From NCBI GenBank assembly GCA_043767805.1, contig JAYUGC010000066.1, positions 5,597-69,596 on the forward strand: 64,000 bases of DNA, written 5' to 3'. Shown here piece by piece: positions 7,326-48,891 of the stretch. The notes under the pieces were generated by a model. The model was not told the origin of the DNA and ran no database searches. It saw nothing but the letters and a program-made list of their open reading frames with translations. Source of the stretch: Pseudomonadota bacterium (lineage in GTDB: Bacteria > Bdellovibrionota > FAC87 > UBA2466). The stretch's first letter is position 1. Every line of letters begins with the position of its first letter. Both the position numbers and the translations under genes were made by a program.

Positions 7326-7500
7326 AACCAGTGCCCGGTTAATCCGTGCCTGTAGGGGTTAGATTTTCCTGACGGGCGGTAGCCACTGGCGACGCGGAAC
7401 GCTCCGTAGACTCAAAGAATACGGGCCTTTCCTGGCCGTCTTGACTCGCCTCGGCCGATCATGGTCCTCTGCCGAACGGGTACCGGCCCTCGGAGGTTCC

Positions 7501-20440: not shown

Positions 20441-21484
20441 ATGAAGACGGCTTTGGCGCTCCTCGCTTTACTCTGTTTCGCGGTTCCTTCTTGGGCTCAA
20501 CACGGCGGAGTCGCCGCTCAGGCCTTGGATCTCACGGCAGTCGATCAAGAGTTGCAGACGAACGGCCTCCGCGGCTGGGTCCACGGCGCGGCCCCTGAGT
20601 TCAACCAGTACGTTTTCACCTGGCGCGACCCGAACGATTTCTTTCTCCACTTCGAGTTCCCGATGATTACGTCGAACCCCGCGATAAAGGCGGAGCTCGC
20701 GAAGCTCGCCCGGCATGACGAAATCCTCATCAAGGGAAAGTTCGCGGGTCTCCAAGCGCCTGTCCGCCACATCCGGCTTTCTTCCGTCCAAGTGGTGACA
20801 AAGTTTAAGTCCGGCGTGACGGCCCCTCACTTCGTGCGCGAAGCGAAAATGCCGGCCGATCTCGAAGGCAAGACGGAGCTCATCGGCAAAGTCCACGCGG
20901 TGGTGGACGACGGCAAGATTCTCGTCATCGAGTACAAGGACGCGGTCATCCCGGTCTTCGTCTCGAACAACACTTACTCCAAAGATTTGTACCGTAATGA
21001 CAAGATCAAGCTCCACTACGTGATCCGCAAGCACCCAAACTCTCCCTCTCACGTGGAGCTCGACCCGGCGGCGGCTAATCCCATCGAAGTCATGGCCCAC
21101 ATGACTGACCTTCACGGCAAACAGGCCGGCGGTATCGACAAAGCCACCGGCAAGCCCATCGGCACCGAAGGCGTGCTGGTGATGTTCCCGAAAAGCCCGC
21201 AGATCATTTTCAACGTGTTTGCCATCCAGGAAGTGGATGCCGACGGCGTGAAAGTCGAGCACACCCTCATCAACTTCGATGACCCGGCCGTGTTCAAAGC
21301 GCTTCGCGAGAAGCTGCAGAAGATGTGGGACGCGGAAGCTTCCACCGTCGTCAATGCCCGTAATAAGTTCATCAACCCGAAAATCCGACTCCGCGTCTTC
21401 GGAGAAGGCAATATGATCGACCCCGGTCAGGCCAATCCGCAGATTTTGATTAAGAGCGAAGCGGACGTCGTTCGGCTTCCCTAG
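20441..21484 (+). CDS. secreted hypothetical protein (347 aa)
   Basis: GGAGG RBS 8 nt upstream of the ATG. Signal peptide 'MKTALALLALLCFAVPSWA'. No family recognised. It is divergent from the gene at 19802-20272. Confidence 0.5.
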   Translation: MKTALALLALLCFAVPSWAQHGGVAAQALDLTAVDQELQTNGLRGWVHGAAPEFNQYVFTWRDPNDFFLHFEFPMITSNPAIKAELAKLARHDEILIKGKFAGLQAPVRHIRLSSVQVVTKFKSGVTAPHFVREAKMPADLEGKTELIGKVHAVVDDGKILVIEYKDAVIPVFVSNNTYSKDLYRNDKIKLHYVIRKHPNSPSHVELDPAAANPIEVMAHMTDLHGKQAGGIDKATGKPIGTEGVLVMFPKSPQIIFNVFAIQEVDADGVKVEHTLINFDDPAVFKALREKLQKMWDAEASTVVNARNKFINPKIRLRVFGEGNMIDPGQANPQILIKSEADVVRLP

Positions 21485-26117: not shown

Positions 26118-29100
26118 TCAGCCCGTGGACGGGAGTTTGCCGGAACGCGCGCCCGCGCCGCGCGCCACCTTCATCTCGATGCCCCGGAGCCAGAGAAAAC
26201 AGCGCCCGTTCTCGTCAAAGAGCGCAACCTCGCTCTTGACCGACGTGCCATCGGACTCGAACTGCTCGAGCCGCAGGCTCACCTTCTCGCTGGGCCGATG
26301 GGTGAAGTAGGTCAGCACGTGGGCGACCCGCACGGGCAGGCAATAATTCCCATTCCGCTCGATCTCGATGACGGCCGTCATCTGGAAGGCGGTATCGATC
26401 CACTGGATGAGCCGGCCCCAGAACGAAGCCGAGTAATCATTGGGAAAGAGATCGGCCAGGCCAAAGGTATTCAGCCGTGCGACCGCATCGCCCCGGCCAT
26501 CGATGAGAACATTCGACAAGGTTTGAAACGCGGGCCCGTGAAAGAGGCCTTGCGGCGCATAGATTTGCCGCTCTCCCACGGTCTGAGCGTTAGCAGCCTC
26601 GCGCCAAAGGGGCGGCAAGGCGGCCGTGCCTTCGGCTTCGCACGCGCGAAAGGACCCGTGATCGGAGGAAATCGTGATTTCGAGGACGCCCTGCCCTGCG
26701 CGCGCCTCCATCGAAAGATCGGCGCCCTTGTCGCCCACCACGATGGGACTTTGCGCGACGAAGTCCGCAAGCCCCACCCAGCGTTTGTGATGCAGGTAAA
26801 GCCCAGCCAAGGACATCGCAACCCCCGCCGCCGCCGGAAGGTAGGCGAGCCCTTCGATCCGGTGATCGGAGAGCATGGTATCGAACGCTGGATCAAGCCG
26901 CCGTACGTAGCGATAAACGCCACGCCCGGCGACCGAGGTCCCCAACAACTCCGGGAAGCCCGTCGCGAGCGATTGGCCATAGGCGAGCCAATCGGTGTCA
27001 TCGAAATAGAGCACCGGCCCTTCGCTTTGAAAAAGATCCTGGCGGAAAAGCTCCGCGGCTTTTTCCGGAGTGAGAAGCGAAAGCCCCTTCTGCACGAGCC
27101 CTTGGCGGATGGCGCGGTTCGCGGTCATACCCACGCCGTCCCAAGGCGGCCAGAGGAGAGAGGCCGCCGAGCCCGCGCCCCAAGCGGAGTTGAGCTCTCG
27201 GCAGAATCGATCGAGCACGGCGTTGGCCGCCGCATAGATGGTCTGACCCGGATTGCCGAACCAGGACACCACGGAAGAGAAAAAGAGAATCCGCTTTGGC
27301 GGATTGGCGGCCACCGCGCGCACCACGTGCGCCGCCGACAAAGCCTTCGCCCAAAGCTCCGAGCGGATTTCCTCGGCGGTCTTGGCTCCCAGCGCCCGGC
27401 TGACCTCGACGCCTGAAGCGTGGATCAGCAAGTCGATGCGCCCGTGTTTGTCCAAGATACGCTCGAGATAGGGCGCGACCTCTTCTTGCCTGGTCGCGTC
27501 CACGGTCTCGTAGCTCAACTCCGGATGTTTGGCCCGAAGGGTATCCAGGTGCGGCGTGATCTCGGTTTCCGACGATCGGCCGCAGAGATGCAGATGACCC
27601 ACGTGATCAAGACCGAGGAGCAAGCTTTGGGTGATGCCCTTCGCGCCGCCGATGGCCACTACCACGGCATTTGGAGGAAGACTCTGCAAGGCATCCGGAT
27701 CGGGCATGGCCTCGAGGCGAGCCACATAGCGAACGCCCTCGCGGTAGCGTACTTCCCATTCGAGGGGATCTCTCATCTCTTCGCGAATCCAACGTAACGC
27801 CTCGATCTTCGGATCGGCGTCGTCCAGACGGATGTGTTTGAAACGAATCTCGGGCGATTCCTTGCGTAAGGCTTTGAAGAAAGCGGCGATCGCTTCCGTA
27901 ATGACGCTGCCTTGGCCCATGGTCACGAACCCGATGGTCAGCTCGGCCAGCTTGGGCTCGATCCGCACAACTTCCTGCACGGCCTCGGCCGCTCTGGGAA
28001 GCCCGGTCTCAAGCCATTGATTGAGGGACCCATCCGCGGTGAGCGACAAATCGCTCACGAAGCCGGTCGCGACAAAGATCACTTGCCGCGTGCGGCAGGA
28101 AGCGAGCTGCTGACGAAACTCAGCCGCGAGCGCTTTTGGATCGAAATCGGTCAGGAAATCCGCTGGGGTCAGCGGGATCATGAGCGGGGTCGCTTCGACG
28201 GAAACTTCCCAGATGGGATCAAGCGCCTGAGGGAACCAAGCCACCCGTTTACGCTCGAAATGACCGACCTTTTCGGGCATCGCCTCGGCGCCCTTCGCGG
28301 CCGGCGCTTCGGTCTCCATGTAACCCACGAGATCTTCGACCTTCGTGAAGCGAGCGTAGTTGACCTCGCCCTCGGGCTTGAAGTTCAGGCGATCCATGAC
28401 CGAGAATAGGATTTCGGTCTTCTTGATGGAATCGATCCCCAAGTCTTCCTGGAAACGATCTTCGAGAGAGATTTCCTCGATCTGGTAGCCGGTAATCTTT
28501 CCGATGACGTCGTTGACGATGGAAAGTACGCGGCCCGCGGGCTTCTTTGCTTTGGCGGCGGCCGCTTTCTTGCGGGGGGTCTTACGGAGCAAGTCGCCCA
28601 CCCAAAGCGTTTCCTTCGCTCCGCATTCGCGCGCCAAAGCCGAGAGCAGCGAGGTGGGGCCAATCTCCATGAACTTGGTGGTGCCGCCCTCGGACATCAC
28701 GCCCATCTGCCGGATGAAATCGACGGGCTCGACCAGCTGATTTTCGAGAATGAAGAAGATGTCATCGGCTTTGAAGTTCGTGGCGTCGACTTGGCGGTGG
28801 AGCACGGAGGAAACGAAAGGAATCGCGGGAGGCGAGAAATTCCAGCTGCGGGACCGCAGGAACTTACGCATCACCGGCTTCAAGGAAAGCAGAAACGGGG
28901 AGTGATACGGCTGCGGCGTGAGAAGGCGCTTCGCCTTGACCCCTTTGTCCTTGATGAGCCGCTCGATCTCGTCCACTTCGCCCGGCGCCACGGCGATGAC
29001 CGTCTGGGTGGGGCTGTTGAAATTGGAAAGATGCACGTTGCGGCCGCGAAGGAGGACCGCCGTGCGCTCGCGGTCCGCGCCCACCGCCACTAGATAACCG

Positions 29101-29600
29101 CGCTCGTTGGCGGGCGGCGAAATCTGTTCTCGGTAGGTCACGAGAGCGAGCATTTCTTCGAATGGCACGACGCCCGCGGCGACCAGCATCGCGTACTCGC
29201 CGAAAGAATGGCTGGTCAGCACCTTCGGAAAGATCCCGCGGCACAAGAGCGAGTCGAAGAGCGCCACTTCGAGTACGAAGAGACTCAAATTCTGGATCGG
29301 TAAGAGGGAAGCCGGGTCCGCGCCTTCTTCGGCCAAAATATGAGAGGAGATCTTGGGAAGGCCGGCACTTACCACGAGCTTATCGGCCTTCTCGAAGACG
29401 CCGCGAATCTCGGGACGGTGGTACTGATCGCGGAGCATGCCCGGGTGCGCGGCGCCTTGGCCGGCAAAGAGAAATCCCCAGCTCGCCTGAGCCGTGGCGG
29501 GCTTCACTTGCAGCTGGTAGCCGCCGCCAAAGATAGACTCCGAGCGCACTTCGGCTTTCTGGTACCAGTTGAGGCCATGCAGGAAGGAAGTGCGGTTCAT
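26118..29600 (-). CDS. type I PKS / PfaA-like protein: acyltransferase - ACP - ketoreductase - PS-type dehydratase (no KS)
   Basis: True start is 'MNRTSF' at 29600, overlapping the KS gene stop (ATGA). AT domain: 'GQGAAHPGM', 'LTSHSFGEYAML' (GHSxG). ACP: 'LGIDSIKKTEIL'. KR: 'VVVAIGGAKGITQ' ... 'YAAANAVLD'. DH: 'HRIEGLAYLPAAAGVAM' (HxxxGxxxxP). The ORF-track N-terminal 28 aa are an extension. Confidence 0.85.
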   Translation of the reverse strand: MNRTSFLHGLNWYQKAEVRSESIFGGGYQLQVKPATAQASWGFLFAGQGAAHPGMLRDQYHRPEIRGVFEKADKLVVSAGLPKISSHILAEEGADPASLLPIQNLSLFVLEVALFDSLLCRGIFPKVLTSHSFGEYAMLVAAGVVPFEEMLALVTYREQISPPANERGYLVAVGADRERTAVLLRGRNVHLSNFNSPTQTVIAVAPGEVDEIERLIKDKGVKAKRLLTPQPYHSPFLLSLKPVMRKFLRSRSWNFSPPAIPFVSSVLHRQVDATNFKADDIFFILENQLVEPVDFIRQMGVMSEGGTTKFMEIGPTSLLSALARECGAKETLWVGDLLRKTPRKKAAAAKAKKPAGRVLSIVNDVIGKITGYQIEEISLEDRFQEDLGIDSIKKTEILFSVMDRLNFKPEGEVNYARFTKVEDLVGYMETEAPAAKGAEAMPEKVGHFERKRVAWFPQALDPIWEVSVEATPLMIPLTPADFLTDFDPKALAAEFRQQLASCRTRQVIFVATGFVSDLSLTADGSLNQWLETGLPRAAEAVQEVVRIEPKLAELTIGFVTMGQGSVITEAIAAFFKALRKESPEIRFKHIRLDDADPKIEALRWIREEMRDPLEWEVRYREGVRYVARLEAMPDPDALQSLPPNAVVVAIGGAKGITQSLLLGLDHVGHLHLCGRSSETEITPHLDTLRAKHPELSYETVDATRQEEVAPYLERILDKHGRIDLLIHASGVEVSRALGAKTAEEIRSELWAKALSAAHVVRAVAANPPKRILFFSSVVSWFGNPGQTIYAAANAVLDRFCRELNSAWGAGSAASLLWPPWDGVGMTANRAIRQGLVQKGLSLLTPEKAAELFRQDLFQSEGPVLYFDDTDWLAYGQSLATGFPELLGTSVAGRGVYRYVRRLDPAFDTMLSDHRIEGLAYLPAAAGVAMSLAGLYLHHKRWVGLADFVAQSPIVVGDKGADLSMEARAGQGVLEITISSDHGSFRACEAEGTAALPPLWREAANAQTVGERQIYAPQGLFHGPAFQTLSNVLIDGRGDAVARLNTFGLADLFPNDYSASFWGRLIQWIDTAFQMTAVIEIERNGNYCLPVRVAHVLTYFTHRPSEKVSLRLEQFESDGTSVKSEVALFDENGRCFLWLRGIEMKVARGAGARSGKLPSTG

Positions 29601-31648
29601 GGCTGAAAGTCGATTCCTTCCAGAGTGAACAGCGGTCCCTTGCCCACGTCCGGCACTTCTCCGGGCCGAGCGAGGAGCAGGCAATGGACTCCCGCCTTAC
29701 GAACGTCCGGCAAAGCTTCGTCGATGATGTCCTCGACTCCGATCGCCACTACGTAATCGCTCGTCTTCTGCCAGAGCTCGAGACGCGCGGCGCTCAGCGC
29801 GCAGGCAAACGAGTTCAAGTCGGCATCGACGTGGTAATTGGGGCCGTGAAAATCAAATTGATTGGCGACTCTACCGGCGATGACGTTGTCGAGCGTGCCC
29901 GGCCCGGCGTCCTCGCCGATTTTGGGATACCGTTCCCGGTGCGAGATGAGTCCTTTGAGGCCCGGCTCATCGCCTTTTCTGCCGCGCGCGAACTCCCAAT
30001 GACGAACCCGGCAATTGAGCCAGGCGTCCAGACCGAGCGAACAGGAGGAGATGACCGCCACGCGGTCGCGGGGAATCTGATCCCAATCGAGCCCCGAGCG
30101 ATCGAGCGCTTCGGACACCGCCATGAGGGTTAGTAGCTGGCTCACGTCGATCTGATTCAAGTTATTGGGCGGGATCTTAAAACCGTAGCTCGGAAAAAAA
30201 TCGAGGAAGTTCTCTCTCGGCACAAAGCTCTGCGCGAGCACCGAGACGGGCCCGACCTCGAGCTTCGGCCGCTCGGCAAGCGCGGTCGTCTGAGAAAACG
30301 TTTCCAAAAAGAGATGGTAGTTCGTCCCGCCAAAACCCGCGGAGCTTACGCCCGCTCTCAACGTACCTTCCTTCGCCATGAGAACCGGCTTCGGATTCAC
30401 GAAGACCGCGGTGGGGGCTCGTTCCTCGATGTAACTTTCGAAGTACGGGGATGGGGGTGCCGTGCGATGGGTAAGCGCAAGAATGCATTTGAGCATTCCC
30501 GCGGCGCCGGCCGCTCCCTTGGTGTGCCCGATTAAGGACTTCACGGAACCGATGGGAATCGGCGTGGGCGCGCCCTTGAAAAAAGCATCGAGGGTGTCGA
30601 TCTCGGTTGCGTCGCCGAGACGCGTGCCGGTCGCGTGGCATTCCAGAAAGTCGAGACGCGCGGGCTTGTTGTCGCCGTACGCTCGCTCCAAAGCGAGGCG
30701 CTGTCCATCGGAAGTTGGGGAAAAGAGACTGGCGCCGCGTCCATTCGAGGAACCGCCACAGCCCCGCAGGATCGCCTTTACCGGAAGCCCCGCCTTCATA
30801 GCGTCGTCTAAACGCACGAGAGCGAAGACCGCGGCGCCTTCTCCTTGATTCACGCCGTCCGTTTTATCGTCGAGCGGAAGGCAGCGGCCGTGGGACATGA
30901 GCCCCAGGCGGCTGAACAAAACGAAGTACTCGGGCGCAAGCTGTGTCTCGACACCGCCCGTGAGAGCGATGTCGCATTCCCGCGCGCGCAGTTTCTTCAT
31001 GGCGACGTCTGCCGCGGCAAGAGACGAGGCGCAAGCGGCCCCCACCAGACACCGTTCGCCGGGCATTTTGAAATGCCTTTGCAGGCGGTCGACCGCCGCC
31101 GTGTTGACGACGAGAGGAAGCGGCGTGGAGCGCTCCGCTTCTAGACGCCTAAGGGTGCTATCCAGGATGGCTCTCGCGGGAGCGCGCTCGGCGGCGGGTA
31201 ATGTCTCGATGTGCTCGAGAAGGCGCGGTCGTTCTAGGATGAGCTTGTGCTCGGAGACCTGATCGTCGGGGCCAAGGGCCCCTAGAAACCAGCCGGCTTT
31301 CCATCCCGCGCGCTTTGCCTCGGGGACCGTGGCTAGCGCCTGATGAGTCGCTTCGAGCAAAAAGACCTGAAAGCGATTCGTGTCTTTGAAATCCAGCCCA
31401 TGCGCTAAAGCGAGCCGCCGCACTTCGGTTTCGGCGACATAGGCGCCGAAAGTGGAATAAGTTTTGTCGGGATCTTCGCCGGTCTCGTCCAAATAAAGAT
31501 CTTCGGGCCAGCGATCGGCCGGAGCGCGGCGGATGGAGGGCTCGCCCGCGAGCACTCGCTTCCAAAAAGTGTCGGGGTTCGGTGAGTCCGGAAAGACGCA
31601 CCCAATTCCCACGACAGCAATATCGTCCTTATAAAGTGTATCGGGCAT
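29597..31648 (-). CDS. type I PKS ketosynthase (KS + KS-AT linker), stand-alone polypeptide
   Basis: 'DIAVVGIGCVFPDSPN', active-site Cys 'VGAACASSLAA', His motifs 'ECHATGTRLGD' and 'SLIGHTKGAAG'. About 250 aa of linker follow the KS. The gene is translationally coupled to the downstream AT-ACP-KR-DH gene. Confidence 0.85.
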   Translation of the reverse strand: MPDTLYKDDIAVVGIGCVFPDSPNPDTFWKRVLAGEPSIRRAPADRWPEDLYLDETGEDPDKTYSTFGAYVAETEVRRLALAHGLDFKDTNRFQVFLLEATHQALATVPEAKRAGWKAGWFLGALGPDDQVSEHKLILERPRLLEHIETLPAAERAPARAILDSTLRRLEAERSTPLPLVVNTAAVDRLQRHFKMPGERCLVGAACASSLAAADVAMKKLRARECDIALTGGVETQLAPEYFVLFSRLGLMSHGRCLPLDDKTDGVNQGEGAAVFALVRLDDAMKAGLPVKAILRGCGGSSNGRGASLFSPTSDGQRLALERAYGDNKPARLDFLECHATGTRLGDATEIDTLDAFFKGAPTPIPIGSVKSLIGHTKGAAGAAGMLKCILALTHRTAPPSPYFESYIEERAPTAVFVNPKPVLMAKEGTLRAGVSSAGFGGTNYHLFLETFSQTTALAERPKLEVGPVSVLAQSFVPRENFLDFFPSYGFKIPPNNLNQIDVSQLLTLMAVSEALDRSGLDWDQIPRDRVAVISSCSLGLDAWLNCRVRHWEFARGRKGDEPGLKGLISHRERYPKIGEDAGPGTLDNVIAGRVANQFDFHGPNYHVDADLNSFACALSAARLELWQKTSDYVVAIGVEDIIDEALPDVRKAGVHCLLLARPGEVPDVGKGPLFTLEGIDFQP

Positions 31649-35883: not shown

Positions 35884-37941
35884 ATGCGCATAGCTTTCGT
35901 CTTTAACAAGCAAAGGACCAAGTCCGTCGCCGAAGCCGAGTTCGACACGGCGGAGACCATCGAGGCGATTCATAACGCCTTGGGCTCCACCGGGCACGAA
36001 GTGGTCGACGTGGAAATGACCACGGACGCCACCTGGGTGGAACGGCTGCTCCGAGTCAAACCGGATCTCATCTTCAATACCGCGGAAGGCTATCGCGGCG
36101 TCGGCCGAGAGAGTTTGGGGCCGGTCCTCTTCGAGCAATCCGGCCTGACGTACGTCGGATCGGGCCCCTACGCCTGTTTTCTGACCCTGGATAAATTTTT
36201 GACTAAGCAAATGGTCTCCCAGCGCGGGGTTCCCGTCTCCGAAGGCCACTTCGTCACGAGCGAGGACGAGCTCAAGACGGTAGCCATGGAAATGGTCTAT
36301 CCCGCGTTCGTTAAGCCCAACTACGAAGGTTCCTCGAAGGGCATCACCAAGCAGAGCATCTGCCGCACGCCCAAGGATCTTCTCGCCTACGGCAAGAAAT
36401 GCCTTTCCGAGTTCCCCGAAGGCCTCCTCATCGAGCGCTTCATTCCGGGTAAGGACGTCACCGTGTCCTATATCGCGGGCCTGGGCGATGAAGGCGTGCT
36501 GGAGCCCGTCGAGTACACCCAGATGGAAAAGCAGGACGGCGACTGGGTTTACGACTACGAGCTAAAAAACATCTCGGACGAGAAAGTCGGCATCCGCTGC
36601 CCGGCGCAGCTTCACCCCTTCACCCGCATTCAGATTATCGAAAAGATGAAACGTTGCGTTAGCGCGCTCGGCGTCGTCGACATGGGCCGCGCCGATTTCC
36701 GGGTCACGCCGGAAGGCGACGTCTACTTCATCGAGTTCAACGCCCTGCCCTCGCTCCAACCCGGCGCCGGAGTGTTCGAAGCGACGAAACTCTTGGGACT
36801 CAGCTACAACCAAACGTTATCGCGCATCCTGGAAACCTCTCTCTCCCGGCAAAAGTTGCAGGGCCCGGTGAACCGGCCTTCCCGCAAAATGACGGTGAAG
36901 TCGCCGCTGGTCGCGGTGGTCTACAACTTGCGCCGCAAGAACAAGGAAGAGGACGGCTACGAAGACGAGGCGGAGTTTGATTCCCAAACGACGGTGGACG
37001 CCATCTGCACGAGCATCCGCACGCTCAACTATAAAGCCATTCCCATCGAAGCGACACGCCAGCTCGCCGAACAGCTCAAAGAAGCCCACGTCGACATCGT
37101 TTTCAACATCGCGGAAGGCCGCGCGAAGAAAGCGCGCGAAGCGCAAGTACCAGCCATCTGCGATCTCTTGGGAATCGAGCACACCGGAAGCGACGTGCCT
37201 TGTCTCGCGCTGACTCTCGACAAAGCGATGACGAAAAAGATCGTCATGTCGGAAGGCATCCTCACCCCCCGGTACGCCATCTTGAACCGGCCTCCCAAAC
37301 GCATCGAGCTGGGTCTCAAATTTCCGATCATCGTGAAGCCGAACCAGGAAGGCACGTCGAAGGGCATTTACGAAAAGTCGGTCGTCTCCACCTCCGAAGA
37401 GCTCCTCGCTTCCATTCAGGCGCTCTGGACCAAGTTCCAAACACCGGTGCTCTGTGAGGAGTACATCGAAGGCCGCGAGTTCACCATCGGGGTTCTGGGG
37501 AGAAATGCGCTAAAGACCGTTGGCCCCATGGAAATCGCCTTCAAGCCCCGTCCGACGACCGCCTATCCGGTGTACTCCTTCGAAGCGAAGATGAGCGAGA
37601 ATCCCATCGACAATGAGTTCTGCCAGCTGATTTGCCCTCCGGAGCTCGATCCGACGCTCCTTCGCCGTATCAACGCCTTCGCGAGAAAGACGTTCAAGAT
37701 TCTCGGCTGCCGGGACATCGCACGCATCGATTTCCGCGTCGATAAAACGGGACAAATCTACTTCATCGAGGTCAACCCGCTACCGGGTCTTTCGCCCGGT
37801 TTCAGCGACCTGGTCATCATGGCTGACAAATCCGGATGGAAGTACGATGATCTCATCAAAGGAATTTTGAATCCGGCGGTACTCAGGTGGCGCAGCACCT
37901 ACACGCACAGGAATCCCGATAGGGAGAACACGGGTGGCTAG
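35884..37941 (+). CDS. fused tandem D-alanine--D-alanine ligase-like ATP-grasp protein (two Ddl-type modules, 685 aa)
   Basis: Two consecutive Ddl-like units share the same motif order. The first runs 'RIAFVFNKQ..' through 'YPAFVKPNYEGSSKGIT' to 'ADFRVTPEGDVYFIEFNALPSL'. The second runs 'VAVVYNLRRKN..' through 'FPIIVKPNQEGTSKGI' to 'ARIDFRVDKTGQIYFIEVNPLPGL'. Confidence 0.7.
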   Translation: MRIAFVFNKQRTKSVAEAEFDTAETIEAIHNALGSTGHEVVDVEMTTDATWVERLLRVKPDLIFNTAEGYRGVGRESLGPVLFEQSGLTYVGSGPYACFLTLDKFLTKQMVSQRGVPVSEGHFVTSEDELKTVAMEMVYPAFVKPNYEGSSKGITKQSICRTPKDLLAYGKKCLSEFPEGLLIERFIPGKDVTVSYIAGLGDEGVLEPVEYTQMEKQDGDWVYDYELKNISDEKVGIRCPAQLHPFTRIQIIEKMKRCVSALGVVDMGRADFRVTPEGDVYFIEFNALPSLQPGAGVFEATKLLGLSYNQTLSRILETSLSRQKLQGPVNRPSRKMTVKSPLVAVVYNLRRKNKEEDGYEDEAEFDSQTTVDAICTSIRTLNYKAIPIEATRQLAEQLKEAHVDIVFNIAEGRAKKAREAQVPAICDLLGIEHTGSDVPCLALTLDKAMTKKIVMSEGILTPRYAILNRPPKRIELGLKFPIIVKPNQEGTSKGIYEKSVVSTSEELLASIQALWTKFQTPVLCEEYIEGREFTIGVLGRNALKTVGPMEIAFKPRPTTAYPVYSFEAKMSENPIDNEFCQLICPPELDPTLLRRINAFARKTFKILGCRDIARIDFRVDKTGQIYFIEVNPLPGLSPGFSDLVIMADKSGWKYDDLIKGILNPAVLRWRSTYTHRNPDRENTGG

Positions 37942-39148
37942 TCTTTTCCAAAAATACTCGGAAGCCGCTCAGCAGAGAAAGCGACTGAGACAGCTGGGCA
38001 TTACGCTCGGCCACTACGAGACCGGGCCGTTCAACGCCATCACGGACGTCGCCGGAGTCAAAGTGGGCCACGCCACCCTCATCGAAGGATCCGGCCGCCG
38101 CAAGCCCGGCAAAGGCCCCATCCGCACCGGCGTCACCATGATCATGCCGAGCGACGATATTTTTGAAAGAAAGCTCGTGGCGAGCGGTTTCATTTTAAAT
38201 GGCGCGGGAGAAGTCGCTGGCCTCACCCAGCTGATGGAATGGGGGCTCATCGAAACCCCCATCGCGCTCACCAACACGCTTTCGGTCGGCCGTGTCGGCG
38301 ACAGCATCGTAAAATGGATGGCCCAGCGCTACGGCCAGAGCCGCATTCAGGCGGAAGTGGTTATCCCCGTGGTCGGCGAGTGCGACGATAGTTTCTTGAA
38401 CGATGCCGTCGGACTCCACATCCGTCCGCAGGACGTGTTCGCGGCCATCGAGAGCGCGACGAGCGGTCCGGTGAGCGAGGGCTGCGTCGGTGCGGGCACC
38501 GGCATGATTTGCTGCGATTTCAAAGGGGGGATCGGAACCGCGAGCCGGGTCATCCCCATGGGGCTTCAGAAAGAGAAGCACACCATCGGCGTGCTGGTCC
38601 TCTCCAACTTCGGTCGCATGGAAGATTTGCGAGTGGACGGCTATCCGGTGGGCCGCGTGCTCTCTCGCGTGCAAGGCGAATACTCCCGCCGGCGGTTCAA
38701 TTACGGGTCCATCATCGTGGTCATCGCGACTGACCTGCCCGTAACGCCGCTGCAACTGGGACGTATTTGCAAGCGCTCGGCCTTAGGGATCGGCCGCGTG
38801 GGAACCTATGCCGCTCACGGGAGCGGAGAGATCATTCTGGGCTTCTCGACGGCGAACACCATTCCGAGCATTTCGACGCCGAAATTCTCCATGACGGTCA
38901 TCAACGATCCGTTTCTCGATCCCGCGTACGAGGCGGTCATCGAAGCGACGGAAGAAGCGATTCTCAATTCGCTTTGCGCCGCGGTCGATACCGACGGCGT
39001 CGGTGGCCACCGTGTGCCGGCCATCGACATCGAGATGCTGAAAAATCTTTTCTCCCATTACAACGCGACGAACGATTACTCGACGCTTCCCGGTAACTTC
39101 GCGCCTCGCTCGCCCGCGCCTCCCGAGCCCGATCCCATCGACAACTAA
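37934..39148 (+). CDS. P1/S58 family peptidase (DmpA-like L-aminopeptidase/D-Ala-esterase-amidase)
   Basis: GTG start with GGGAG RBS, overlapping the Ddl-like stop. 'ITDVAGVKVGHAT', 'GTGMICCDFKGGIGTASR' and 'GVLVLSNFG' fit the DmpA/S58 Ntn-hydrolase family. Confidence 0.65.
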   Translation: MASLFQKYSEAAQQRKRLRQLGITLGHYETGPFNAITDVAGVKVGHATLIEGSGRRKPGKGPIRTGVTMIMPSDDIFERKLVASGFILNGAGEVAGLTQLMEWGLIETPIALTNTLSVGRVGDSIVKWMAQRYGQSRIQAEVVIPVVGECDDSFLNDAVGLHIRPQDVFAAIESATSGPVSEGCVGAGTGMICCDFKGGIGTASRVIPMGLQKEKHTIGVLVLSNFGRMEDLRVDGYPVGRVLSRVQGEYSRRRFNYGSIIVVIATDLPVTPLQLGRICKRSALGIGRVGTYAAHGSGEIILGFSTANTIPSISTPKFSMTVINDPFLDPAYEAVIEATEEAILNSLCAAVDTDGVGGHRVPAIDIEMLKNLFSHYNATNDYSTLPGNFAPRSPAPPEPDPIDN

Positions 39149-39262: not shown

Positions 39263-39559
39263 ATGAAATTCTGGATGCTCATGCTCTGTGCGATCACCCT
39301 CTTCACGGCGAGCCTCGCGAAAGCGGAAGACGAAGCCGCGGGAACCGACACGGTCACTACGACCGATACGACGACGACCGATTCCTCCACGACGGAATCG
39401 AAGGGCGGCCACAAGAAGCACGCTCGTAAGCACAAGTCCAAGATGACGAAGAAATCCAAGAAGGCGAAGAGAGCCCACAAAGCGGCGGAGCCCGTTGCGG
39501 CCCCCGAAGCGGCGACTCCCCCGGCTGAAGGCGAAATGCCGGCCGAAGGCGCGAACTAA
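39263..39559 (+). CDS. small secreted Thr-rich / Lys-His-rich basic protein (98 aa)
   Basis: Signal peptide 'MKFWMLMLCAITLFTASLAKA'. Mature part is 'TDTVTTTDTTTTDSSTTE' followed by 'GGHKKHARKHKSKMTKKSKKAKRAHKAA' and a Pro/Ala/Glu tail. Its own -10 box lies upstream and a strong terminator downstream. Confidence 0.5.
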   Translation: MKFWMLMLCAITLFTASLAKAEDEAAGTDTVTTTDTTTTDSSTTESKGGHKKHARKHKSKMTKKSKKAKRAHKAAEPVAAPEAATPPAEGEMPAEGAN

Positions 39560-39570
39560 AAGTTCGGTGA

Positions 39571-39608
39571 GGGTACCCGGCTCCGCGCCGGGTACCCTAC
39601 CTCTTTTA
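39571..39608. terminator. rho-independent terminator (11-bp GC stem + T tract), bidirectional position
   Basis: 'gggtacccggc-tccgc-gccgggtaccc' followed by 'tacctcttttacc'. It lies between the + gene ending at 39559 and the - gene ending at 39606. Confidence 0.7.
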
Positions 39609-40136
39609 CCGAATCAGAAACGTTTCCTCGTAGCGCACGCGCGACTCGCGCACGAGCTGCATCGCCTCTTCCTTGCCGCCGGTTCCCGTCACTTCCCCTT
39701 CCCAGCCCGATTGCTTCATTTCCTCTTCGAGAAACGAGCGAACCTGAGCCAGGCGGTACTGCGGGTATTGCGCGAGAGTTTCGTACTCGGCGACATCTCT
39801 ATCGTCGCAATGAACGCACACGAGTCTCGTGTCGACCACGCCGCGCCACAGACATTTGAACAGGCCGATGGGACGCACCCGCGCGAGCGTGAGGCTCGGC
39901 AACGAGCGCTCGCCCAAGATGAGCGCTTCGAGCGGAGTTTTCTCGGGCGTCGCGGTTTTCGGCAGAATGCCGCAGTTGCCGGGATACGTCGTATCCTCGG
40001 AGAGCAGCGCCGCGACTTTCAACAAGCCCGACTCTTTGTCGAGCACGTACCGGATCGACGAGTCCTTCGGCATCGTGATGACGGCCGGAAAGAAGGACGC
40101 ATCAGCGGGCCAATCGACTGAGTGCCACGGATTCAT
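39606..40136 (-). CDS. inorganic pyrophosphatase (family I) fold protein with substituted catalytic residues (degenerate PPase homolog)
   Basis: Start 'MNPWHSV' at 40136 has AAGGAGG 7 nt upstream. 'IRYVLDKESGLLKV' resembles PPase 'IKYEIDKESGALFV', and 'YPGNCGILPKT' resembles 'YPCNYGYINHT'. The conserved 'DGDPVDVLV' is 'EKTPLEALIL' here, and 'KMTDEAGEDAKL' is 'KCLWRGVVDTRL'. The ORF-track N-terminal extension is rejected. Confidence 0.6.
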   Translation of the reverse strand: MNPWHSVDWPADASFFPAVITMPKDSSIRYVLDKESGLLKVAALLSEDTTYPGNCGILPKTATPEKTPLEALILGERSLPSLTLARVRPIGLFKCLWRGVVDTRLVCVHCDDRDVAEYETLAQYPQYRLAQVRSFLEEEMKQSGWEGEVTGTGGKEEAMQLVRESRVRYEETFLIR

Positions 40137-40170
40137 AACGCCTCCTTTTAGGTTGAGGAACGTAACTAAA

Positions 40171-40398
40171 TCAATCTTCCACCGGCGGGGGCTGGTCCAC
40201 CTGCTGCTGCTGAGTTTCGTCATCGCGAATATCGCCGTCCATGGCCGGCGGCGGGGGAAACTCGCCACCCGTGTCGGCTTCGTACTCCTCGTCTTCGGCG
40301 ACACGCATCGGAGGCTCACTCAAAATGTCGGCGCGCGCGGAACGAACCACCGCGAAGAAGGCGAGCCAGATCGCCAGGCCTAAAGACAACTTTTTCAT
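40171..40398 (-). CDS. small secreted acidic Pro-rich peptide (75 aa), co-transcribed upstream of the PPase-like gene
   Basis: Start 'MKKLSLGLAIWLAFFAVVRSARA' (signal peptide, GAGG RBS). Mature part is 'DILSEPPMRVAEDEEYEADTGGEFPPPPAMDGDIRDDETQQQQVDQPPPVED'. There is a 34-nt gap to the downstream PPase-like gene. Confidence 0.4.
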   Translation of the reverse strand: MKKLSLGLAIWLAFFAVVRSARADILSEPPMRVAEDEEYEADTGGEFPPPPAMDGDIRDDETQQQQVDQPPPVED

Positions 40399-40582
40399 AA
40401 GTGACCTCGAATTGGACGGAGACTTCAGTAGCTGGGAAGACAGCTTCATTATGCCACTAACCGGCGAGACGGGGAAGTCACCCTGGCCGCGTAGTGGTGC
40501 CTTCTCGGCCCCAAAAAAGCCGTTTAAGCCGGCCCTTTTCCTCAATGCCTACACAATTGCGGCACGCCGATCGGGTCAAATA

Positions 40583-40634: not shown

Positions 40635-41279
40635 GTGCCGCTACTTAGCTGCCTCGCTTTGCTTTTTATTTCCACGCTGGCTTTTGCCGAAGCGCCCCAA
40701 CGCCTCGCGAAAATCCGTCCACCGCTCTGGGACGTGTCGCCCCGTTTGATGCTCGGCTTCAATTTTTCCTACGGCGCCGCCGATCCCGGCTCTCCGGGCT
40801 CGACTCGCAATGCGCCGTCGTTTCTGGCGTCGGTCGATCTTCCACTCGGAAACGGCTGGTACTTTTCTCCGGGCATGGGCCTACTCGCTCGCGGGGTGCA
40901 GACCACGGTGTACACCTTGGGCACCTTGGATTTAAAGGGTAGCGTGCAGCTCGATTACGTCGAGCTTCCGCTTCTGCTGAAAAAATCCTTCGCAAGTCAC
41001 GTGCGCGGCATGCGCTATACGTTTTTCGGCGGCCCCGCCATGGCGCTCGCCATCCAGCGTGAGGTCGAGCTGCTAGGCGCCGTGAACCTCGACATCTCCG
41101 ATCGCTTTTTCGCGAGCGATACGCTTTTCTACATGGGCGCGGGGATTGAGTATAAAGGACCGAAGGGACCTGGGATCGTGGCGGAGCTCAGGTACGCGCT
41201 GGGGCTCGGCGACATCGATCGGACGGCGAATCAGTACCGCACGCGCGGGATTTTGTTTTTGCTGGGACTCAGCTTTTAG
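40635..41279 (+). CDS. outer-membrane beta-barrel protein (OmpA-N/porin-like small barrel)
   Basis: GTG start with GGAGGGG RBS. Signal peptide 'PLLSCLALLFISTLAFA'. Alternating hydrophobic beta-strand pattern. C-terminal 'GILFLLGLSF' ends in Phe, as in barrel-assembly signals. Confidence 0.6.
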   Translation: MPLLSCLALLFISTLAFAEAPQRLAKIRPPLWDVSPRLMLGFNFSYGAADPGSPGSTRNAPSFLASVDLPLGNGWYFSPGMGLLARGVQTTVYTLGTLDLKGSVQLDYVELPLLLKKSFASHVRGMRYTFFGGPAMALAIQREVELLGAVNLDISDRFFASDTLFYMGAGIEYKGPKGPGIVAELRYALGLGDIDRTANQYRTRGILFLLGLSF

Positions 41280-42094
41280 TCAGCGAGGGAGAGATCGCAA
41301 AAGAGACCTTCGGCAACCCAAGCCTGAAACCAAAGGCTTAGTTTCCCGGGATCGTCCACGAGTCCTTCAATGGCAGCGCAAGCCGACCCGAGAGTCTCGC
41401 CGCGGGAAAGATTTTCCAAGAGACGGAACGCGCCGAGCTCCAGACTCTCGACTCGCATGCCGCCGGAGAGCAGCCGGCGAGCGCAAAGCCACTGCTTGCG
41501 CGGCTTTTTCGGAAACGTAAGGCGTTGCGATCCTAAACGATGGCGCCACAGCCCCAAGATGGGCCAGGCCGATTCCACGAGCCGCACTGAAGGCGCGAGC
41601 TCCAAGCGAACTTGAGTGCCCTCTTCTCCCGCGAGTAACTGCAACCGCTCCGGCGCGAGAGCGCGGGACTGCCCCGCGAAAAAAGCCTCGAGATACCAGC
41701 GCTCGAAACGGGCGAGCTCTCCGAGCCAAGGGTTATCCCGGCAAAGCTCCAGGGATTGCACGAACTCGGGGAACGCCCTACCCGCGACCATAATGTCGGG
41801 AGACTGCGAAGGATGCCTTTCGAAATACAGGCGCACTAGATCGGAAAACGTCTCGTAGTCCTCAAGCCAAGTGACGGACTTCCCCGTGGCCTCATAGTCA
41901 TCGGAGACGCTTTCCAAAAGACGCCAGAAGTAGCCGTTCGCGTAGATCGCCACTCGATCCGCGCGCGCGATGGGCGGCTGATCCACGATGTGCGGATGCG
42001 CGGCCCAAACCGCCGGATCCGTACCGGTGAAAGCTTCACGGAGCGATTGCTGAAGCTCGGCTAGACTGGGCACCCGCCCTCGGGTCGCATCCAA
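41276..42094 (-). CDS. DUF2063-family protein (MbnC/BufC-like partner of MNIO enzymes)
   Basis: 272 aa. It lies immediately downstream of, and overlaps, the DUF692 gene, which is the canonical DUF692-DUF2063 pairing. The start is uncertain (59-nt overlap if taken at 42094). Confidence 0.6.
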   Translation of the reverse strand: MDATRGRVPSLAELQQSLREAFTGTDPAVWAAHPHIVDQPPIARADRVAIYANGYFWRLLESVSDDYEATGKSVTWLEDYETFSDLVRLYFERHPSQSPDIMVAGRAFPEFVQSLELCRDNPWLGELARFERWYLEAFFAGQSRALAPERLQLLAGEEGTQVRLELAPSVRLVESAWPILGLWRHRLGSQRLTFPKKPRKQWLCARRLLSGGMRVESLELGAFRLLENLSRGETLGSACAAIEGLVDDPGKLSLWFQAWVAEGLFCDLSLAD

Positions 42095-42947
42095 GAAATT
42101 CCTCCCGGAAAAACTCTGCCCGGGCCGCCTCTTCGGCTAGCCGGGGAAATTCAGGTAACTGATCGTCCCACTCGATCAGGGTCGGCACGTCCCCAAAAAG
42201 CCTGAGCGCCTGGCGGTACAGCTCCCAAACGGGATCCGATACCGGATGGTCGTGGGTATCAATGAGATGGGTACCCTTGTCCGAGTACCCCGCCAGATGA
42301 AACTGCCCCACGCGATCGGCCGGCACCGCGTTCAAGTAGGTCATCGGATCGAAACCATGGTTGCGGCTACTGACGTAAATATTATTCACGTCGAGCAGCA
42401 ACCCGCAATCGGCCTCCTCGGCGACACGAGAGAGGAACTCCCACTCCTCCATTTCGGAATGAGTGAAGGTGAGATAGCTCGAGACATTTTCAACCAGGAT
42501 GCGGCGGCCGAGAAAATCCTGGACCTGGCCGATGCGGCTCACCACGTGCTTAAGCGCTTCTTCCGTATAAGGAAGCGGAAGTAAATCGTGCAGGTTCTGC
42601 CCTCCGACCCCCGTCCAGCAAAGGTGATCGGAAACCCACGCCGGCTCTACGCGGGCGATGAGCTCTTTCCAGCGCTTTAGATAATCGTCTCGAAACGGAT
42701 CGACCGATCCCAAGGAAAGCGAAACGCCATGAAGAACGATGGGGTAATGCTCGCGCACGGACTCCAGAATTTCGACGGGTCTTCCGAACTCCCGCGCGCC
42801 CAGCCCTAGAAAATTTTCGGTGATGACTTCGAACCAGCCCAGGTTGGGCCGGTTCTCGAGGACGAAGGGATAGTGAGGCGGACGGAGCCCCACGCCCACT
42901 CCGAAGGAGCGTGCCTGGTACCCGTCCGCCTCACCAAATCGATACAT
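42036..42947 (-). CDS. DUF692 / MNIO (multinuclear non-heme iron oxidative enzyme; MbnB/BufB-like)
   Basis: N-terminal 'SFGVGVGLRPPHYPFV' matches the DUF692 'GIGLR..H' hallmark. Later 'HGVSLSLGS', 'ENVSSYL' and 'LLLDVNNIYVSS' are TIM-barrel (xylose-isomerase-like) iron-ligand regions. Confidence 0.8.
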   Translation of the reverse strand: MYRFGEADGYQARSFGVGVGLRPPHYPFVLENRPNLGWFEVITENFLGLGAREFGRPVEILESVREHYPIVLHGVSLSLGSVDPFRDDYLKRWKELIARVEPAWVSDHLCWTGVGGQNLHDLLPLPYTEEALKHVVSRIGQVQDFLGRRILVENVSSYLTFTHSEMEEWEFLSRVAEEADCGLLLDVNNIYVSSRNHGFDPMTYLNAVPADRVGQFHLAGYSDKGTHLIDTHDHPVSDPVWELYRQALRLFGDVPTLIEWDDQLPEFPRLAEEAARAEFFREEFLGCDPRAGAQSSRASAIAP

Positions 42948-42968
42948 CAGAATCCTAGGGAGCGAGGC

Positions 42969-43256
42969 TTAGGCCTTTTCCCACTGGATCTTCACATTTT
43001 TGTCCTTGTTGTCGGCTTTGGCCTTCGTGCACTCGGCTTCCGTCATCTTCTTCCAGCCTTTGCCCTTGCAGCCGTTCTTGCCCGCGCAGTCGTGCGACTT
43101 GTCTTTCGCGCCACAGTCGCCCGTGGTTTTGCAGGAGTTCGCGCCCAAGCATTTGCCCTTGGCCGCGTCGTCCGCTTTCGCCGTGGAGGGGACGAGGATC
43201 GCCGCTCCGAGAATGCCCGTCATTGCTGCCGCCACGATGAGATTATTTTTCTTCAT
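42969..43256 (-). CDS. DUF2282-like Cys-rich secreted precursor peptide (bufferin/BufA-like RiPP precursor), 95 aa
   Basis: Start 'MKKNNLIVAAAMTGILGAAILVPSTAKA' (signal peptide, GGAGA RBS). Core is 'GKCLGANSCKTTGDCGAKDKSHDCAGKNGCKGKGWKKMTEAEC'. It has six Cys and fits the DUF2282 pattern GKCxG...GxDC...HxC.G......W......C. It lies 21 nt upstream of the MNIO gene on the same strand. Confidence 0.7.
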   Translation of the reverse strand: MKKNNLIVAAAMTGILGAAILVPSTAKADDAAKGKCLGANSCKTTGDCGAKDKSHDCAGKNGCKGKGWKKMTEAECTKAKADNKDKNVKIQWEKA

Positions 43257-47277: not shown

Positions 47278-48891
47278 ATGTTAAAAAGGTTTTCTCCTTG
47301 GGCCTGGGCCCTGCCAGGCCTGCTCGGAGCGCTACTTCTCGCGGTGGGATGGCCGCTAGCCTCCGATCACGATCTCTACCTCCATCTAAAGACGGGTGAG
47401 CTGACCATTGAGCGAGGCCTTCCAGGCCTAAACGACCGCTTCAGTTACACGGACCCGAGCGCCCCCGAAGAGACTCATTCCTGGCTATCCCAGGTCGTTC
47501 TCTATGAGACCTATCACTGGGGCGGAGAAACAGGCCTCCGCGCTTTGAACACGCTCTTACTCTTTTTCTTAGTGGGACTTTGCTTTCGCTTCGTTTGGCG
47601 GAGAGGAAACTCCGCGGCGGCCGCGGGCCTGACGGCGGCGTTCGTCGTGCTGGCCCAAGCGCAGGTGCAAACGTTTCGCCCCGTGGTCATCAGCCAGGCC
47701 CTTGGCGCGGTACTACTGTTCGCGATTCTCGCGCCAGAGACTCCATGGACGAAAAAAAGAGGCCTGGCCGCCGTCCTGCTCACCGCGCTTTGGGCGAATT
47801 TGCACGGCAGTAGCCTACTCGCACCGCTCTTCGTTTTTTTGAGAACGCGCCGATTCGGATGGACCATGGCCTGCGCGGCGGCTCTCCTCGTGAACCCTCG
47901 CGGCCCTGAGCTCTGGATAGATTCACTCGCCATCGTGGATCTGGGCCGCTCGCTCGCCATTGGGGAATGGGTGAGTAACGTCTATCCGCCGATTTTGTGG
48001 ATTGCTGCCGCGGGCGCTCTCTGGACTCTGCTCAAGCGAGGCAGAAACGATTGGACGGCGGTGACCGGCGCGATCCTGGTCTGCCTCGCCTTCAGCGCGC
48101 ACCGCCATTTGGCGTGGCTTTTCTTTCCGCTCTGCGCGGCCGGTGCCGCCCTCGCTTCCGGCGTCACCTTGAGAGCGAGCCCCGCGCTGCTCGGCATCGC
48201 CATCGCGCTTTGGGGAGGCCGCTTTTGGGTGAGCGGTTTGACGACGATGCCCGTCGAGCGCGCGGTAAACTTCCTTCAAGCCGCGGGACTGGAGGGCAAC
48301 GTTTTCAATCACCCGAGCTGGGGCGCCTACCTCGCCTTCCGCCTCTATCCCAAAATTAAGGTCGCTCACACCATGCGCCTACTCACTCACAAAAACATTT
48401 TTCTCTGGGAGAAAGAGCGGTGGTTCTCCCAAGGCGGCATGACGCTCGATGAGGTGACCCAGCAGTGGCCCGAGACCCAAATCGCCTTCTTACCGTCGAG
48501 CTGGCCCATTCCCCATCTGGCGGATCCCACCCAATGGGCGCCGATTTACGTGAACAACCAGGCGGTGATTCTGCTGAGGCGGACCCCCGCCAACACGGAG
48601 AACTGGAAGAAAGCCCAAAGTTACTACGCGAACCGCAAGCTTCCCTTCGAGGAAGGGCCCGGGCTGTTACCGAGACTTGTCGACGAGATCGACCCGGCCT
48701 GGATGAGAGCCCAGGAAGAAAAAGGCGGTTGGGGCAGGTGGCCCGACCCGGAGAAGCTCTCGCGCGCCTACAATGACAGCATCAACACCTGGAAGCGCTG
48801 GCTCTCGTGGAAAGGAGAGTCTTCTCCTGGAGCTCCCGAGCGCTTCTATTGGAAGCCCTCGCCTCCGCCTCAAGGAACCGCGCAGCCGTAG
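47278..48891 (+). CDS. hypothetical polytopic membrane protein (537 aa)
   Basis: Nine or more hydrophobic helices, then a hydrophilic Trp-rich C-terminus. No catalytic motif recognised. Confidence 0.5.
   Translation: MLKRFSPWAWALPGLLGALLLAVGWPLASDHDLYLHLKTGELTIERGLPGLNDRFSYTDPSAPEETHSWLSQVVLYETYHWGGETGLRALNTLLLFFLVGLCFRFVWRRGNSAAAAGLTAAFVVLAQAQVQTFRPVVISQALGAVLLFAILAPETPWTKKRGLAAVLLTALWANLHGSSLLAPLFVFLRTRRFGWTMACAAALLVNPRGPELWIDSLAIVDLGRSLAIGEWVSNVYPPILWIAAAGALWTLLKRGRNDWTAVTGAILVCLAFSAHRHLAWLFFPLCAAGAALASGVTLRASPALLGIAIALWGGRFWVSGLTTMPVERAVNFLQAAGLEGNVFNHPSWGAYLAFRLYPKIKVAHTMRLLTHKNIFLWEKERWFSQGGMTLDEVTQQWPETQIAFLPSSWPIPHLADPTQWAPIYVNNQAVILLRRTPANTENWKKAQSYYANRKLPFEEGPGLLPRLVDEIDPAWMRAQEEKGGWGRWPDPEKLSRAYNDSINTWKRWLSWKGESSPGAPERFYWKPSPPPQGTAQP

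Follow-up and report, generated by a model that had tools for sequence, protein, structure and literature searches.

Family I inorganic pyrophosphatases (PPases) are textbook cases of an invariant active site. Their main catalytic residues are described as unchanged across the family; in the yeast enzyme, Asp117 activates the nucleophilic water, with a low-barrier hydrogen bond, and Asp115, Asp120, Asp152, Tyr93 and Lys56 are listed as active-site residues (PMC11210485). Here, we describe a gene in a 64,000-nucleotide (nt) stretch of contig JAYUGC010000066.1 whose 176-amino-acid (aa) product is homologous to these enzymes over its whole length and has 13 of the 15 classical catalytic residues replaced. 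We refer to the whole stretch as the window; all coordinates are positions within it, and the same word labels its sequence lineage when it is compared with the related contigs L001, L002/L003 and L004. The PPase-like gene (39606..40136, minus strand; MNPWHSVDW...ETFLIR), called from its open reading frame (ORF), translation and PF00719 match, lies downstream of a small gene (40171..40398, minus strand; MKKLSLGLAIW...) that encodes a 75-aa protein with a putative signal peptide and an acidic, Pro-rich tail.

Family I PPases such as Arabidopsis PPA1 (4lug, 5ls0), the Thermococcus thioreducens enzyme (3i98) and E. coli Ppa (1i40) resemble the window protein in their full-length fold, their size of about 175 aa and the lack of a signal peptide, none being present on the PPase-like protein. 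They also have the YPxNxG motif, the Y30/D33/G37 region and F135 in common with it, and the nearest canonical bacterial PPases begin with the same MNPWH. The window protein departs from them in its replaced catalytic residues, in a DxDxxD core that has become Ex[T/L/S]xxE, in its position on the longest branch of the tree and in its gene order, since it is encoded with a small predicted exported protein whereas a family I PPase is a stand-alone housekeeping gene. As an enzyme homologue that lacks catalytic motifs and is nevertheless under selection, it is akin to pseudokinases, pseudophosphatases and prozymes. A pseudoenzyme review gives allosteric partner, scaffold and ligand trap as the expected modes of action of such proteins and mentions no family I pseudo-pyrophosphatase (PMC10211241). 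A full-text search of 8 million texts found none described either, although absence from that collection is no proof.

The assignment to family I is carried by sequence and by structure prediction. The 176-aa protein matches PF00719 over model positions 1-152 of 153 (E=2.2e-25; 89.7 bits, gathering cut-off 23.5), and 38 distinct PDB pyrophosphatase sequences match it at E<1e-4, the best being Arabidopsis PPA1 (4lug, E=1.8e-24) and proteins from Medicago, Pyrococcus and Thermococcus. An AlphaFold2 model computed from 20 sequences (mean predicted local distance difference test score, 90.4) shows the PPase fold, an OB-like beta-barrel with two helices. Foldseek aligned this model to 4lug with a TM score of 0.92 and a root-mean-square deviation of 1.8 Å, and the 50 best matches shown were all PPases. 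Scores against the NCBIfam inorganic diphosphatase equivalogs all fell below their cut-offs (60.8 versus 246, 60.3 versus 200 and 48.8 versus 247 bits).

We read the 15 classical positions from a profile alignment with E. coli Ppa. The catalytic signature of the window protein, TRVAAYCETEWDREM, is identical to that of E. coli at Y51 and D102 only (2/15). Four changes are conservative (K29R, D65E, D70E and K104R), and the remainder are E20T, E31V, D42A, R43A, Y55C, D67T, D97W, Y141E and K142M. The protein has thereby lost the general base D67, the metal ligands E20, E31 and D97, and R43, Y55, Y141 and K142, which bind inorganic pyrophosphate (PPi). Motif by motif, D65-x-D67-x-x-D70 reads E-K-T-P-L-E in the window and E-x-[T/L/S]-x-x-E across its closest relatives (the clade defined below); D97, D102 and K104 read W, D and R, with W, S or A at position 97 in the clade; and among E20, K29, E31, D42, R43, Y51, Y55, Y141 and K142 only Y51 is unchanged. 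Relative to active homologues the catalytic motifs are lost, as in a pseudoenzyme. For comparison, 95 of 184 aligned PPase domains carry all 15 catalytic residues, and most of the others carry 13-14. The clade has two further novelties that do not vary among its members, the motif C107-V-H109-C110 and GWEGE (144-148).

HMMER, MAFFT and phmmer agree on the register of the 176-aa protein, and their alignments need no more than one or two gaps of a single residue. An earlier note on this DNA had aligned the protein to family I PPases by eye, and HMMER and MAFFT reproduced that alignment (DGDPVDVLV to EKTPLEALI; DEAGEDAK to WRGVVDTR); the profile alignment also bore out Thr and Cys as the counterparts of E20 and Y55. 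An intact Asp triad elsewhere in the protein was sought in the profile alignment and not found, which rules out a misalignment by eye. The claim that nearly all catalytic acidic residues are replaced slightly overstates the case: most have changed, and three of the eight acidic positions are still carboxylates (E65, E70 and D102). A PROSITE-style PPase pattern proved too strict as a test, as 47 of 169 sequences failed it, many of them canonical, and the D-x-D-x-x-D core was used in its place.

We take yeast Asp117 to be the equivalent of E. coli D67, and yeast Asp115, Asp120 and Asp152 to be those of D65, D70 and D102. Mutagenesis of the E. coli and yeast PPases has established that single substitutions at the catalytic sites replaced here cause large losses, and structures of D42N, D65N and D97N mutant PPases are among the PDB and Foldseek matches of the window protein. 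Because the structure-function relationships of the family are so well established, PPi hydrolysis has very probably been lost in the 176-aa protein. With the homology and fold of a family I PPase and none of its catalytic motifs intact, the protein should not be annotated as an inorganic diphosphatase; the Joint Genome Institute (JGI) names its relative P0002 'inorganic pyrophosphatase'.

The protein belongs to a very small clade. A word-indexed search of 5.8 billion clusters returned the protein itself and four relatives at 71-80% identity, below which identity drops to 34% and lower, among canonical PPases (nearest, 29-34%). All five clade members carry the substituted signature. Of the 15 formerly catalytic positions, 12 do not vary within the clade, and elsewhere in the protein the figure is 83 of 161 (Fisher one-sided p=0.03); the three that vary are 55 (C/G/S/L), 67 (T/L/S) and 97 (W/S/A). 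When 1.84 billion representatives clustered at 50% identity were searched exhaustively by HMMER with a clade profile, a single clade cluster emerged (P0003, 357 bits), the next single-domain matches scoring 118 bits or less. A neighbour-joining tree built from 74 single-domain sequences shows the clade as monophyletic, and its branch is the longest of all 146 (0.76; median, 0.11). The L001 contig comes from a metagenome-assembled genome (MAG) labelled uncultured Pseudobdellovibrionaceae. Looking for further members, a scan of genome collections gave only the L001 contig again, and two metagenome scans, one with protein patterns and one with the back-translated motif WEGE[VI]TGxGG, gave none.

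At least eight independent assemblies, representing five sequence variants, contain the ORF intact and with these same substitutions. Between the window and L001, the ratio of nonsynonymous to synonymous substitution rates (dN/dS) of the PPase-like gene is 0.15 at a dS of about 1.2. Six flanking genes range from 0.05 to 0.38, five with Pfam domains at 0.05-0.26 and a 98-aa ORF at 0.38. The PPase-like gene, with a dN/dS of 0.15 and five intact orthologues, is thus under purifying selection, as expected of a pseudoenzyme, and is not a decaying pseudogene. The proposal of the earlier note that the locus encodes a pseudo-PPase or a repurposed fold is favoured by this selection and by the substituted signature in all five clade members.

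Every contig that extends far enough carries a small gene 17-34 nt upstream of the PPase-like gene and in the same orientation, so that the pairing noted earlier recurs wherever upstream sequence is available. These contigs are the window with its Logan twins (L011 and L012), L001, the JGI contig of P0002, L002/L003 and L004. The sequence of the small ORF could be read in four lineages; on the JGI contig only an 81-aa gene call is available. Sequence search with the small protein recovered only itself, and its orthologues were found by synteny instead. Their identity is only about 40%, with in-frame indels between them. All four readable small ORFs have in common a hydrophobic segment at the N-terminus (truncated in L002/L003, where the contig ends), a VAE[DE][DE] motif, the ending PPPx(E)D and an acidic, Pro-rich body (18-33% D+E and 17-31% P). 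The co-occurrence comes from one narrow syntenic lineage only and represents a conserved operon, not a functional partnership.

Layout and composition of the small protein agree with the earlier description of it as a signal peptide followed by an acidic, Pro-rich tail. An MKK n-region and a 15-residue hydrophobic core lead to ARA|D, after which comes a 52-aa tail that, in the window, holds 33% D+E and 17% P and is acidic and Pro-rich throughout. The n-, h- and c-region layout ending in ARA|D in the window and AAA|S in L001 fits a Sec signal peptide (residues 1-23, predicted from the sequence layout; nt 40330-40398, minus strand), and we predict that the peptide is exported. AlphaFold2 models a helix at residues 6-23 only, with the remainder as coil. 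The small protein matched no Pfam, NCBIfam, PADLOC or PHROG family. A defence-system or phage origin was considered and set aside, as neither the PPase-like protein nor the small ORF matched PADLOC or PHROG.

Both genes have ribosome-binding sites (RBSs) that can be read directly from the sequence. The PPase-like gene is preceded by a Shine-Dalgarno AAGGAGG at 40141..40147 (minus strand), 4 nt before its ATG; L001 reads AAGGAGGAG at this site. This motif and the 34-nt gap between the small coding sequence and the PPase-like one, which is the distal gene, had been given earlier and were recovered from the sequence. The small ORF has a GAGG at 40405..40408 (minus strand), 6 nt before its ATG, which is also present in L001. 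An alternative in-frame ATG further upstream (MKLSSQLLKSPSNSRSL..., 40449-40399, minus strand) would add 17 codons. Since it overlaps CATAAT, a conserved -10-like hexamer, and in L001 is not in frame, we prefer the RBS-proximal ATG at 40398.

That CATAAT belongs to a promoter-like element, TTCCCC-N14-TGGCATAAT (40448..40476, minus strand), a block conserved between the aligned upstream regions of the window, L001 and L004, the only three loci aligned. TGGCATAAT consists of TGG and the hexamer CATAAT, an extended -10 type, with a spacing of 17 nt from TTCCCC to CATAAT. Relative to the small ORF, the block is located about 50-85 nt upstream in both the window and L001, and in L004 it immediately precedes the ORF, whose promoter it would be; a strict consensus scan of the window missed it. 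At the other end, a terminator scan of the window identified a GC-rich hairpin with a 12-bp palindrome (39570..39598) between the PPase-like gene and a convergent 98-aa gene. It is likely a bidirectional terminator, with a weak T-run on its minus-strand side. Promoter-like block and terminator hairpin together delimit a two-gene operon. An Rfam search of the flanks for riboswitches and small RNAs gave two chance-level matches only (E=0.13 and 0.42). GC content at third codon positions is 0.77 for the PPase-like gene and 0.72 for the small ORF, and at second positions 0.44 and 0.41, like neighbouring genes. Recent horizontal transfer was considered and rejected, since GC, skew and third-position GC are indistinguishable from those of the neighbours and regional GC shows no anomaly.

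Other PPase relatives in metagenomes have also lost catalytic residues. The proteins P0021-P0024, P0032 and P0117 are 400-650 aa long and carry two or three tandem family I PPase domains, possibly as a covalent 'trimer'. Like the window protein, P0023, P0024, P0032 and P0117 include modules in which many catalytic residues are gone (4-7 of 15 retained; 6/15 both in domain 3 of P0023 and in domain 2 of P0032). These modules are fused to intact domains and have an unrelated signature, whereas the window protein is free-standing and more extreme. No publication on tandem degenerate PPase proteins was found in our literature search. Among free-standing proteins, P0027, P0033, P0050, P0026, P0138, P0094, P0095 and P0046 keep 7-10 of the 15 residues. 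P0027, P0033 and P0050, with the signature EQ[AE][KR]RYYD[ET]D[QE]DKYR, as well as P0138 and P0094, are among the top matches of the clade profile, and they resemble the window protein in size (about 175-185 aa) and in having K29, E31, D42, D67 and D97 substituted. Among the residues that they keep are D65, D70, D102 and K104, and they are only about 30% identical to the window protein. P0094 is sister to the clade in the tree, which may reflect long-branch attraction. From these sequences, partial remodelling of the PPase active site seems to have happened several times.

The reading that we prefer, and to which we give roughly an even chance, is that the 176-aa protein descends from family I PPases as a lineage-specific, non-catalytic form that would serve as a cytoplasmic binding or regulatory module through its remodelled pocket. 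The whole PPase fold is kept, with the general base D67, the M2-M4 metal ligands (E20, E31 and D97) and most PPi-binding residues gone, from which we infer that PPi is not hydrolysed by the family mechanism. The former active-site pocket has been remodelled and then frozen in the clade: it keeps the M1-site carboxylate triad as E65/E70/D102 and two basic residues, R29 and R104, and gains the small or hydrophobic residues T21, V31, A42, A43 and M140. Such a pocket could bind a metal ion and/or an anionic ligand, possibly within an oligomer, and we favour a role in binding because the remodelled pocket is invariant in the clade. The gene is the second of a two-gene operon, which would have its own promoter and whose first gene would encode a Sec-exported, disordered, acidic and Pro-rich mini-protein, and a functional link between the two products may be suspected. 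Several observations weigh against this picture. The enrichment of invariance in the pocket is weak (p=0.03, from five sequences at 70-80% identity), and structural constraint could explain it. Three carboxylates and two arginines are left in the pocket, so that residual or altered catalysis is possible. We assume the protein to be a paralogue, with a canonical PPase encoded elsewhere in the genome. With the small peptide predicted to be exported and the PPase-like protein to be cytoplasmic, the separate compartments argue against a direct physical partnership, and the two genes may share an operon for co-regulation and not because their products touch. The module may also be dispensable: contig L023, whose S58 peptidase is 93% identical to the one flanking the window locus, carries another gene at the syntenic position, for an unrelated 327-aa secreted protein (2915-3898 of that contig, plus strand) that follows the peptidase gene within the 1.7 kb available.

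The main rival, which we find unlikely, is that the PPase-like protein is a regulatory subunit that co-assembles with the housekeeping family I PPase and tunes its activity or stability. The housekeeping enzyme is a trimer-of-dimers hexamer, and a dead regulatory paralogue, or prozyme, is a classical pseudoenzyme mode. The idea gains from the full fold, retained with high model confidence, and from the tandem proteins with a degenerate domain (P0023, with 15, 15 and 6 residues kept; P0024, with 15, 4 and 10; P0032, with 14 and 6), which show that dead PPase modules paired with live ones are viable. Allostery within hetero-oligomers is also the commonest pseudoenzyme mechanism (PMC10211241). 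Set against it, no canonical PPase gene was found in the window or in 19.6 kb of the 46-kb L001 contig, the nearest canonical sequences are only 29-34% identical, a large divergence for co-assembly, and the invariance of the remodelled pocket would be left unexplained. Distinctly doubtful is a neofunctionalised enzyme, in which the metal site E65/E70/D102 and R29/R104 would support different chemistry and an enlarged pocket (A42, A43, V31 and T21) would take in a phosphorylated or carboxylated substrate of greater bulk or hydrophobicity. The M1-site carboxylates and both basic residues are indeed invariant, the replacements toward smaller or hydrophobic residues are fixed across the clade, and the same review documents, in general terms, pseudoenzymes whose catalytic residues have migrated (PMC10211241). 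However, the positions at which a base or nucleophile would be expected vary (67, T/L/S; 55, C/G/S/L; 97, W/S/A), the neighbouring genes suggest no pathway, and our literature search found no non-PPase chemistry for the PPase fold. We likewise know of no report of such chemistry. That the protein is still a working PPase, with Glu for Asp, Arg for Lys and compensating residues sustaining PPi hydrolysis, is very improbable: E65, E70, D102, R29, R104 and Y51 would preserve part of the chemistry on an intact fold, but the general base D67 has become T, L or S and is not conserved even within the clade, E20, E31, D42, R43, Y55, D97, Y141 and K142 are replaced by residues without the required function, and the scores lie far below the NCBIfam equivalog cut-offs.

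The upstream gene suggests another alternative, which we consider improbable, namely that the small ORF is a regulatory leader whose signal-peptide-bearing nascent chain stalls at its C-terminal polyproline and acidic residues, in the manner of SecM, MifM or VemP or in dependence on elongation factor P, and so controls translation of the PPase-like gene. Like these arrest peptides, the small ORF has an N-terminal export signal, predicted here, and a conserved C-terminal motif near the next start. Its conserved parts are the hydrophobic N-terminus, VAE[DE][DE] and PPPx(E)D just before the stop, with a middle that varies in length and sequence, and 17-34 nt separate its stop from the next start. 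In contrast to SecM, MifM and VemP, however, it is followed by a gene that is not a Sec or YidC component or other secretion factor and that has its own strong RBS; the junction shows no conserved structure that would mask this RBS (fold z-scores of +0.67, +1.69, -0.27 and -1.70 in four loci); the polyproline and acidic motif is not a known arrest sequence; and the acidic, Pro-rich composition is kept over the whole tail and not only at its end. A decaying pseudogene or an artefact of assembly or annotation has nothing but the loss of catalytic residues to recommend it and is effectively refuted by the same substitutions in at least eight assemblies, the dN/dS of 0.15, the strong RBS and a codon-position GC like that of the host. 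A more novel reading, which we hold to be rather unlikely, would make the PPase fold a non-enzymatic receptor whose Glu/Glu/Asp and two-Arg pocket senses a metal or a phosphate-type anion, in a dedicated module with the exported peptide. Such a receptor could control or chaperone the peptide before export, or couple cytoplasmic PPi or metal status to an envelope function in predatory-type bacteria.

We further compared the surroundings of the operon. The convergent 98-aa gene (39263-39559, plus strand) encodes a predicted signal peptide together with a Thr-rich stretch, TVTTTDTTTTDSSTT, and a basic block rich in Lys and His, HKKHARKHKSKMTKKSKKAKRAHK. The gene adjoins the PPase-like gene in all loci that are long enough and is 62% identical to its L001 counterpart over aligned positions. 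Exported mini-proteins, one acidic and one basic, are thus predicted on the two sides of the PPase-like gene. Beyond it, at 35884-39148 (plus strand), lie a tandem D-Ala-D-Ala-ligase-like ATP-grasp gene (685 aa, two Dala_Dala_lig_C modules) and a Peptidase_S58/DmpA-like gene, which overlap by 8 nt. This pair is widely conserved in related MAGs, often after an arginase-family gene and an ATP-binding cassette transporter and before BacA. Orthologues of the flanking S58 peptidase are found at 90-93% identity, followed by hundreds at 70% or below. In three relatives whose S58 peptidase is 68-70% identical, the ATP-grasp/S58 operon is followed by BacA, and the 98-aa, PPase-like and small genes are all absent. 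An origin of the PPase-like gene in situ from a canonical ppa was rejected, as these three relatives have BacA, and not a PPase, 3' of ATP-grasp/S58. In L001, the stretch from the outer-membrane barrel gene to the small ORF contains inserted genes for an HNH endonuclease and an Lcl_C-domain protein (6903-8589 of that contig). The absence of the module from relatives, together with such insertions, indicates that it was added recently, in this lineage, to a variable part of the chromosome.

On the other side, an OMP_b-brl_2 outer-membrane barrel gene (40635-41279, plus strand) adjoins a bufferin-type cluster for a ribosomally synthesised and post-translationally modified peptide (RiPP; 41276-43250, minus strand), which lies beside the small ORF and PPase-like pair and is syntenic in L001. 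The cluster comprises a Cys-rich secreted precursor (MKKNNLIV...; 42969-43250, minus strand), whose L001 orthologue has a faint BufA1 match, an enzyme of the MbnB/TglH/ChrH family (42036-42947, minus strand; E=3e-110) and a DUF2063/HvfC_N protein assigned by domain match (41276-42094, minus strand). The neighbours (ATP-grasp ligase, S58 peptidase, outer-membrane barrel and bufferin-type RiPP cluster) show no theme of PPi metabolism. Elsewhere in the window, two large genes resembling polyketide or polyunsaturated-fatty-acid synthases (26118-31648, minus strand) encode ketosynthase (683 aa) and acyltransferase-ketoreductase-dehydratase (1188 aa) proteins, and five ORFs of 537-908 aa match no Pfam family at E<=1e-5 (11859-14585, 21481-23514 and 5589-7325 on the minus strand; 52369-54180 and 47278-48891 on the plus strand).

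The comparisons made here point to a probable pseudoenzyme: a highly conserved enzyme family has given rise to a putatively non-catalytic protein that is encoded in a small, conserved operon. Our literature search found no prior description of a free-standing, selected and catalytically disabled family I PPase. The clade is tiny, with five sequences from uncultured bacteria. An 'inorganic pyrophosphatase' label on its members is an annotation hazard, as it could wrongly credit a MAG with a PPase. The 13 co-occurring active-site substitutions form a compact natural set for studying the scaffold without catalysis. If the receptor reading were true, it would be the first described non-catalytic function of the family I PPase fold and, if loss of catalysis is confirmed biochemically, this fold would join the enzyme scaffolds that have been recycled for binding or regulation.

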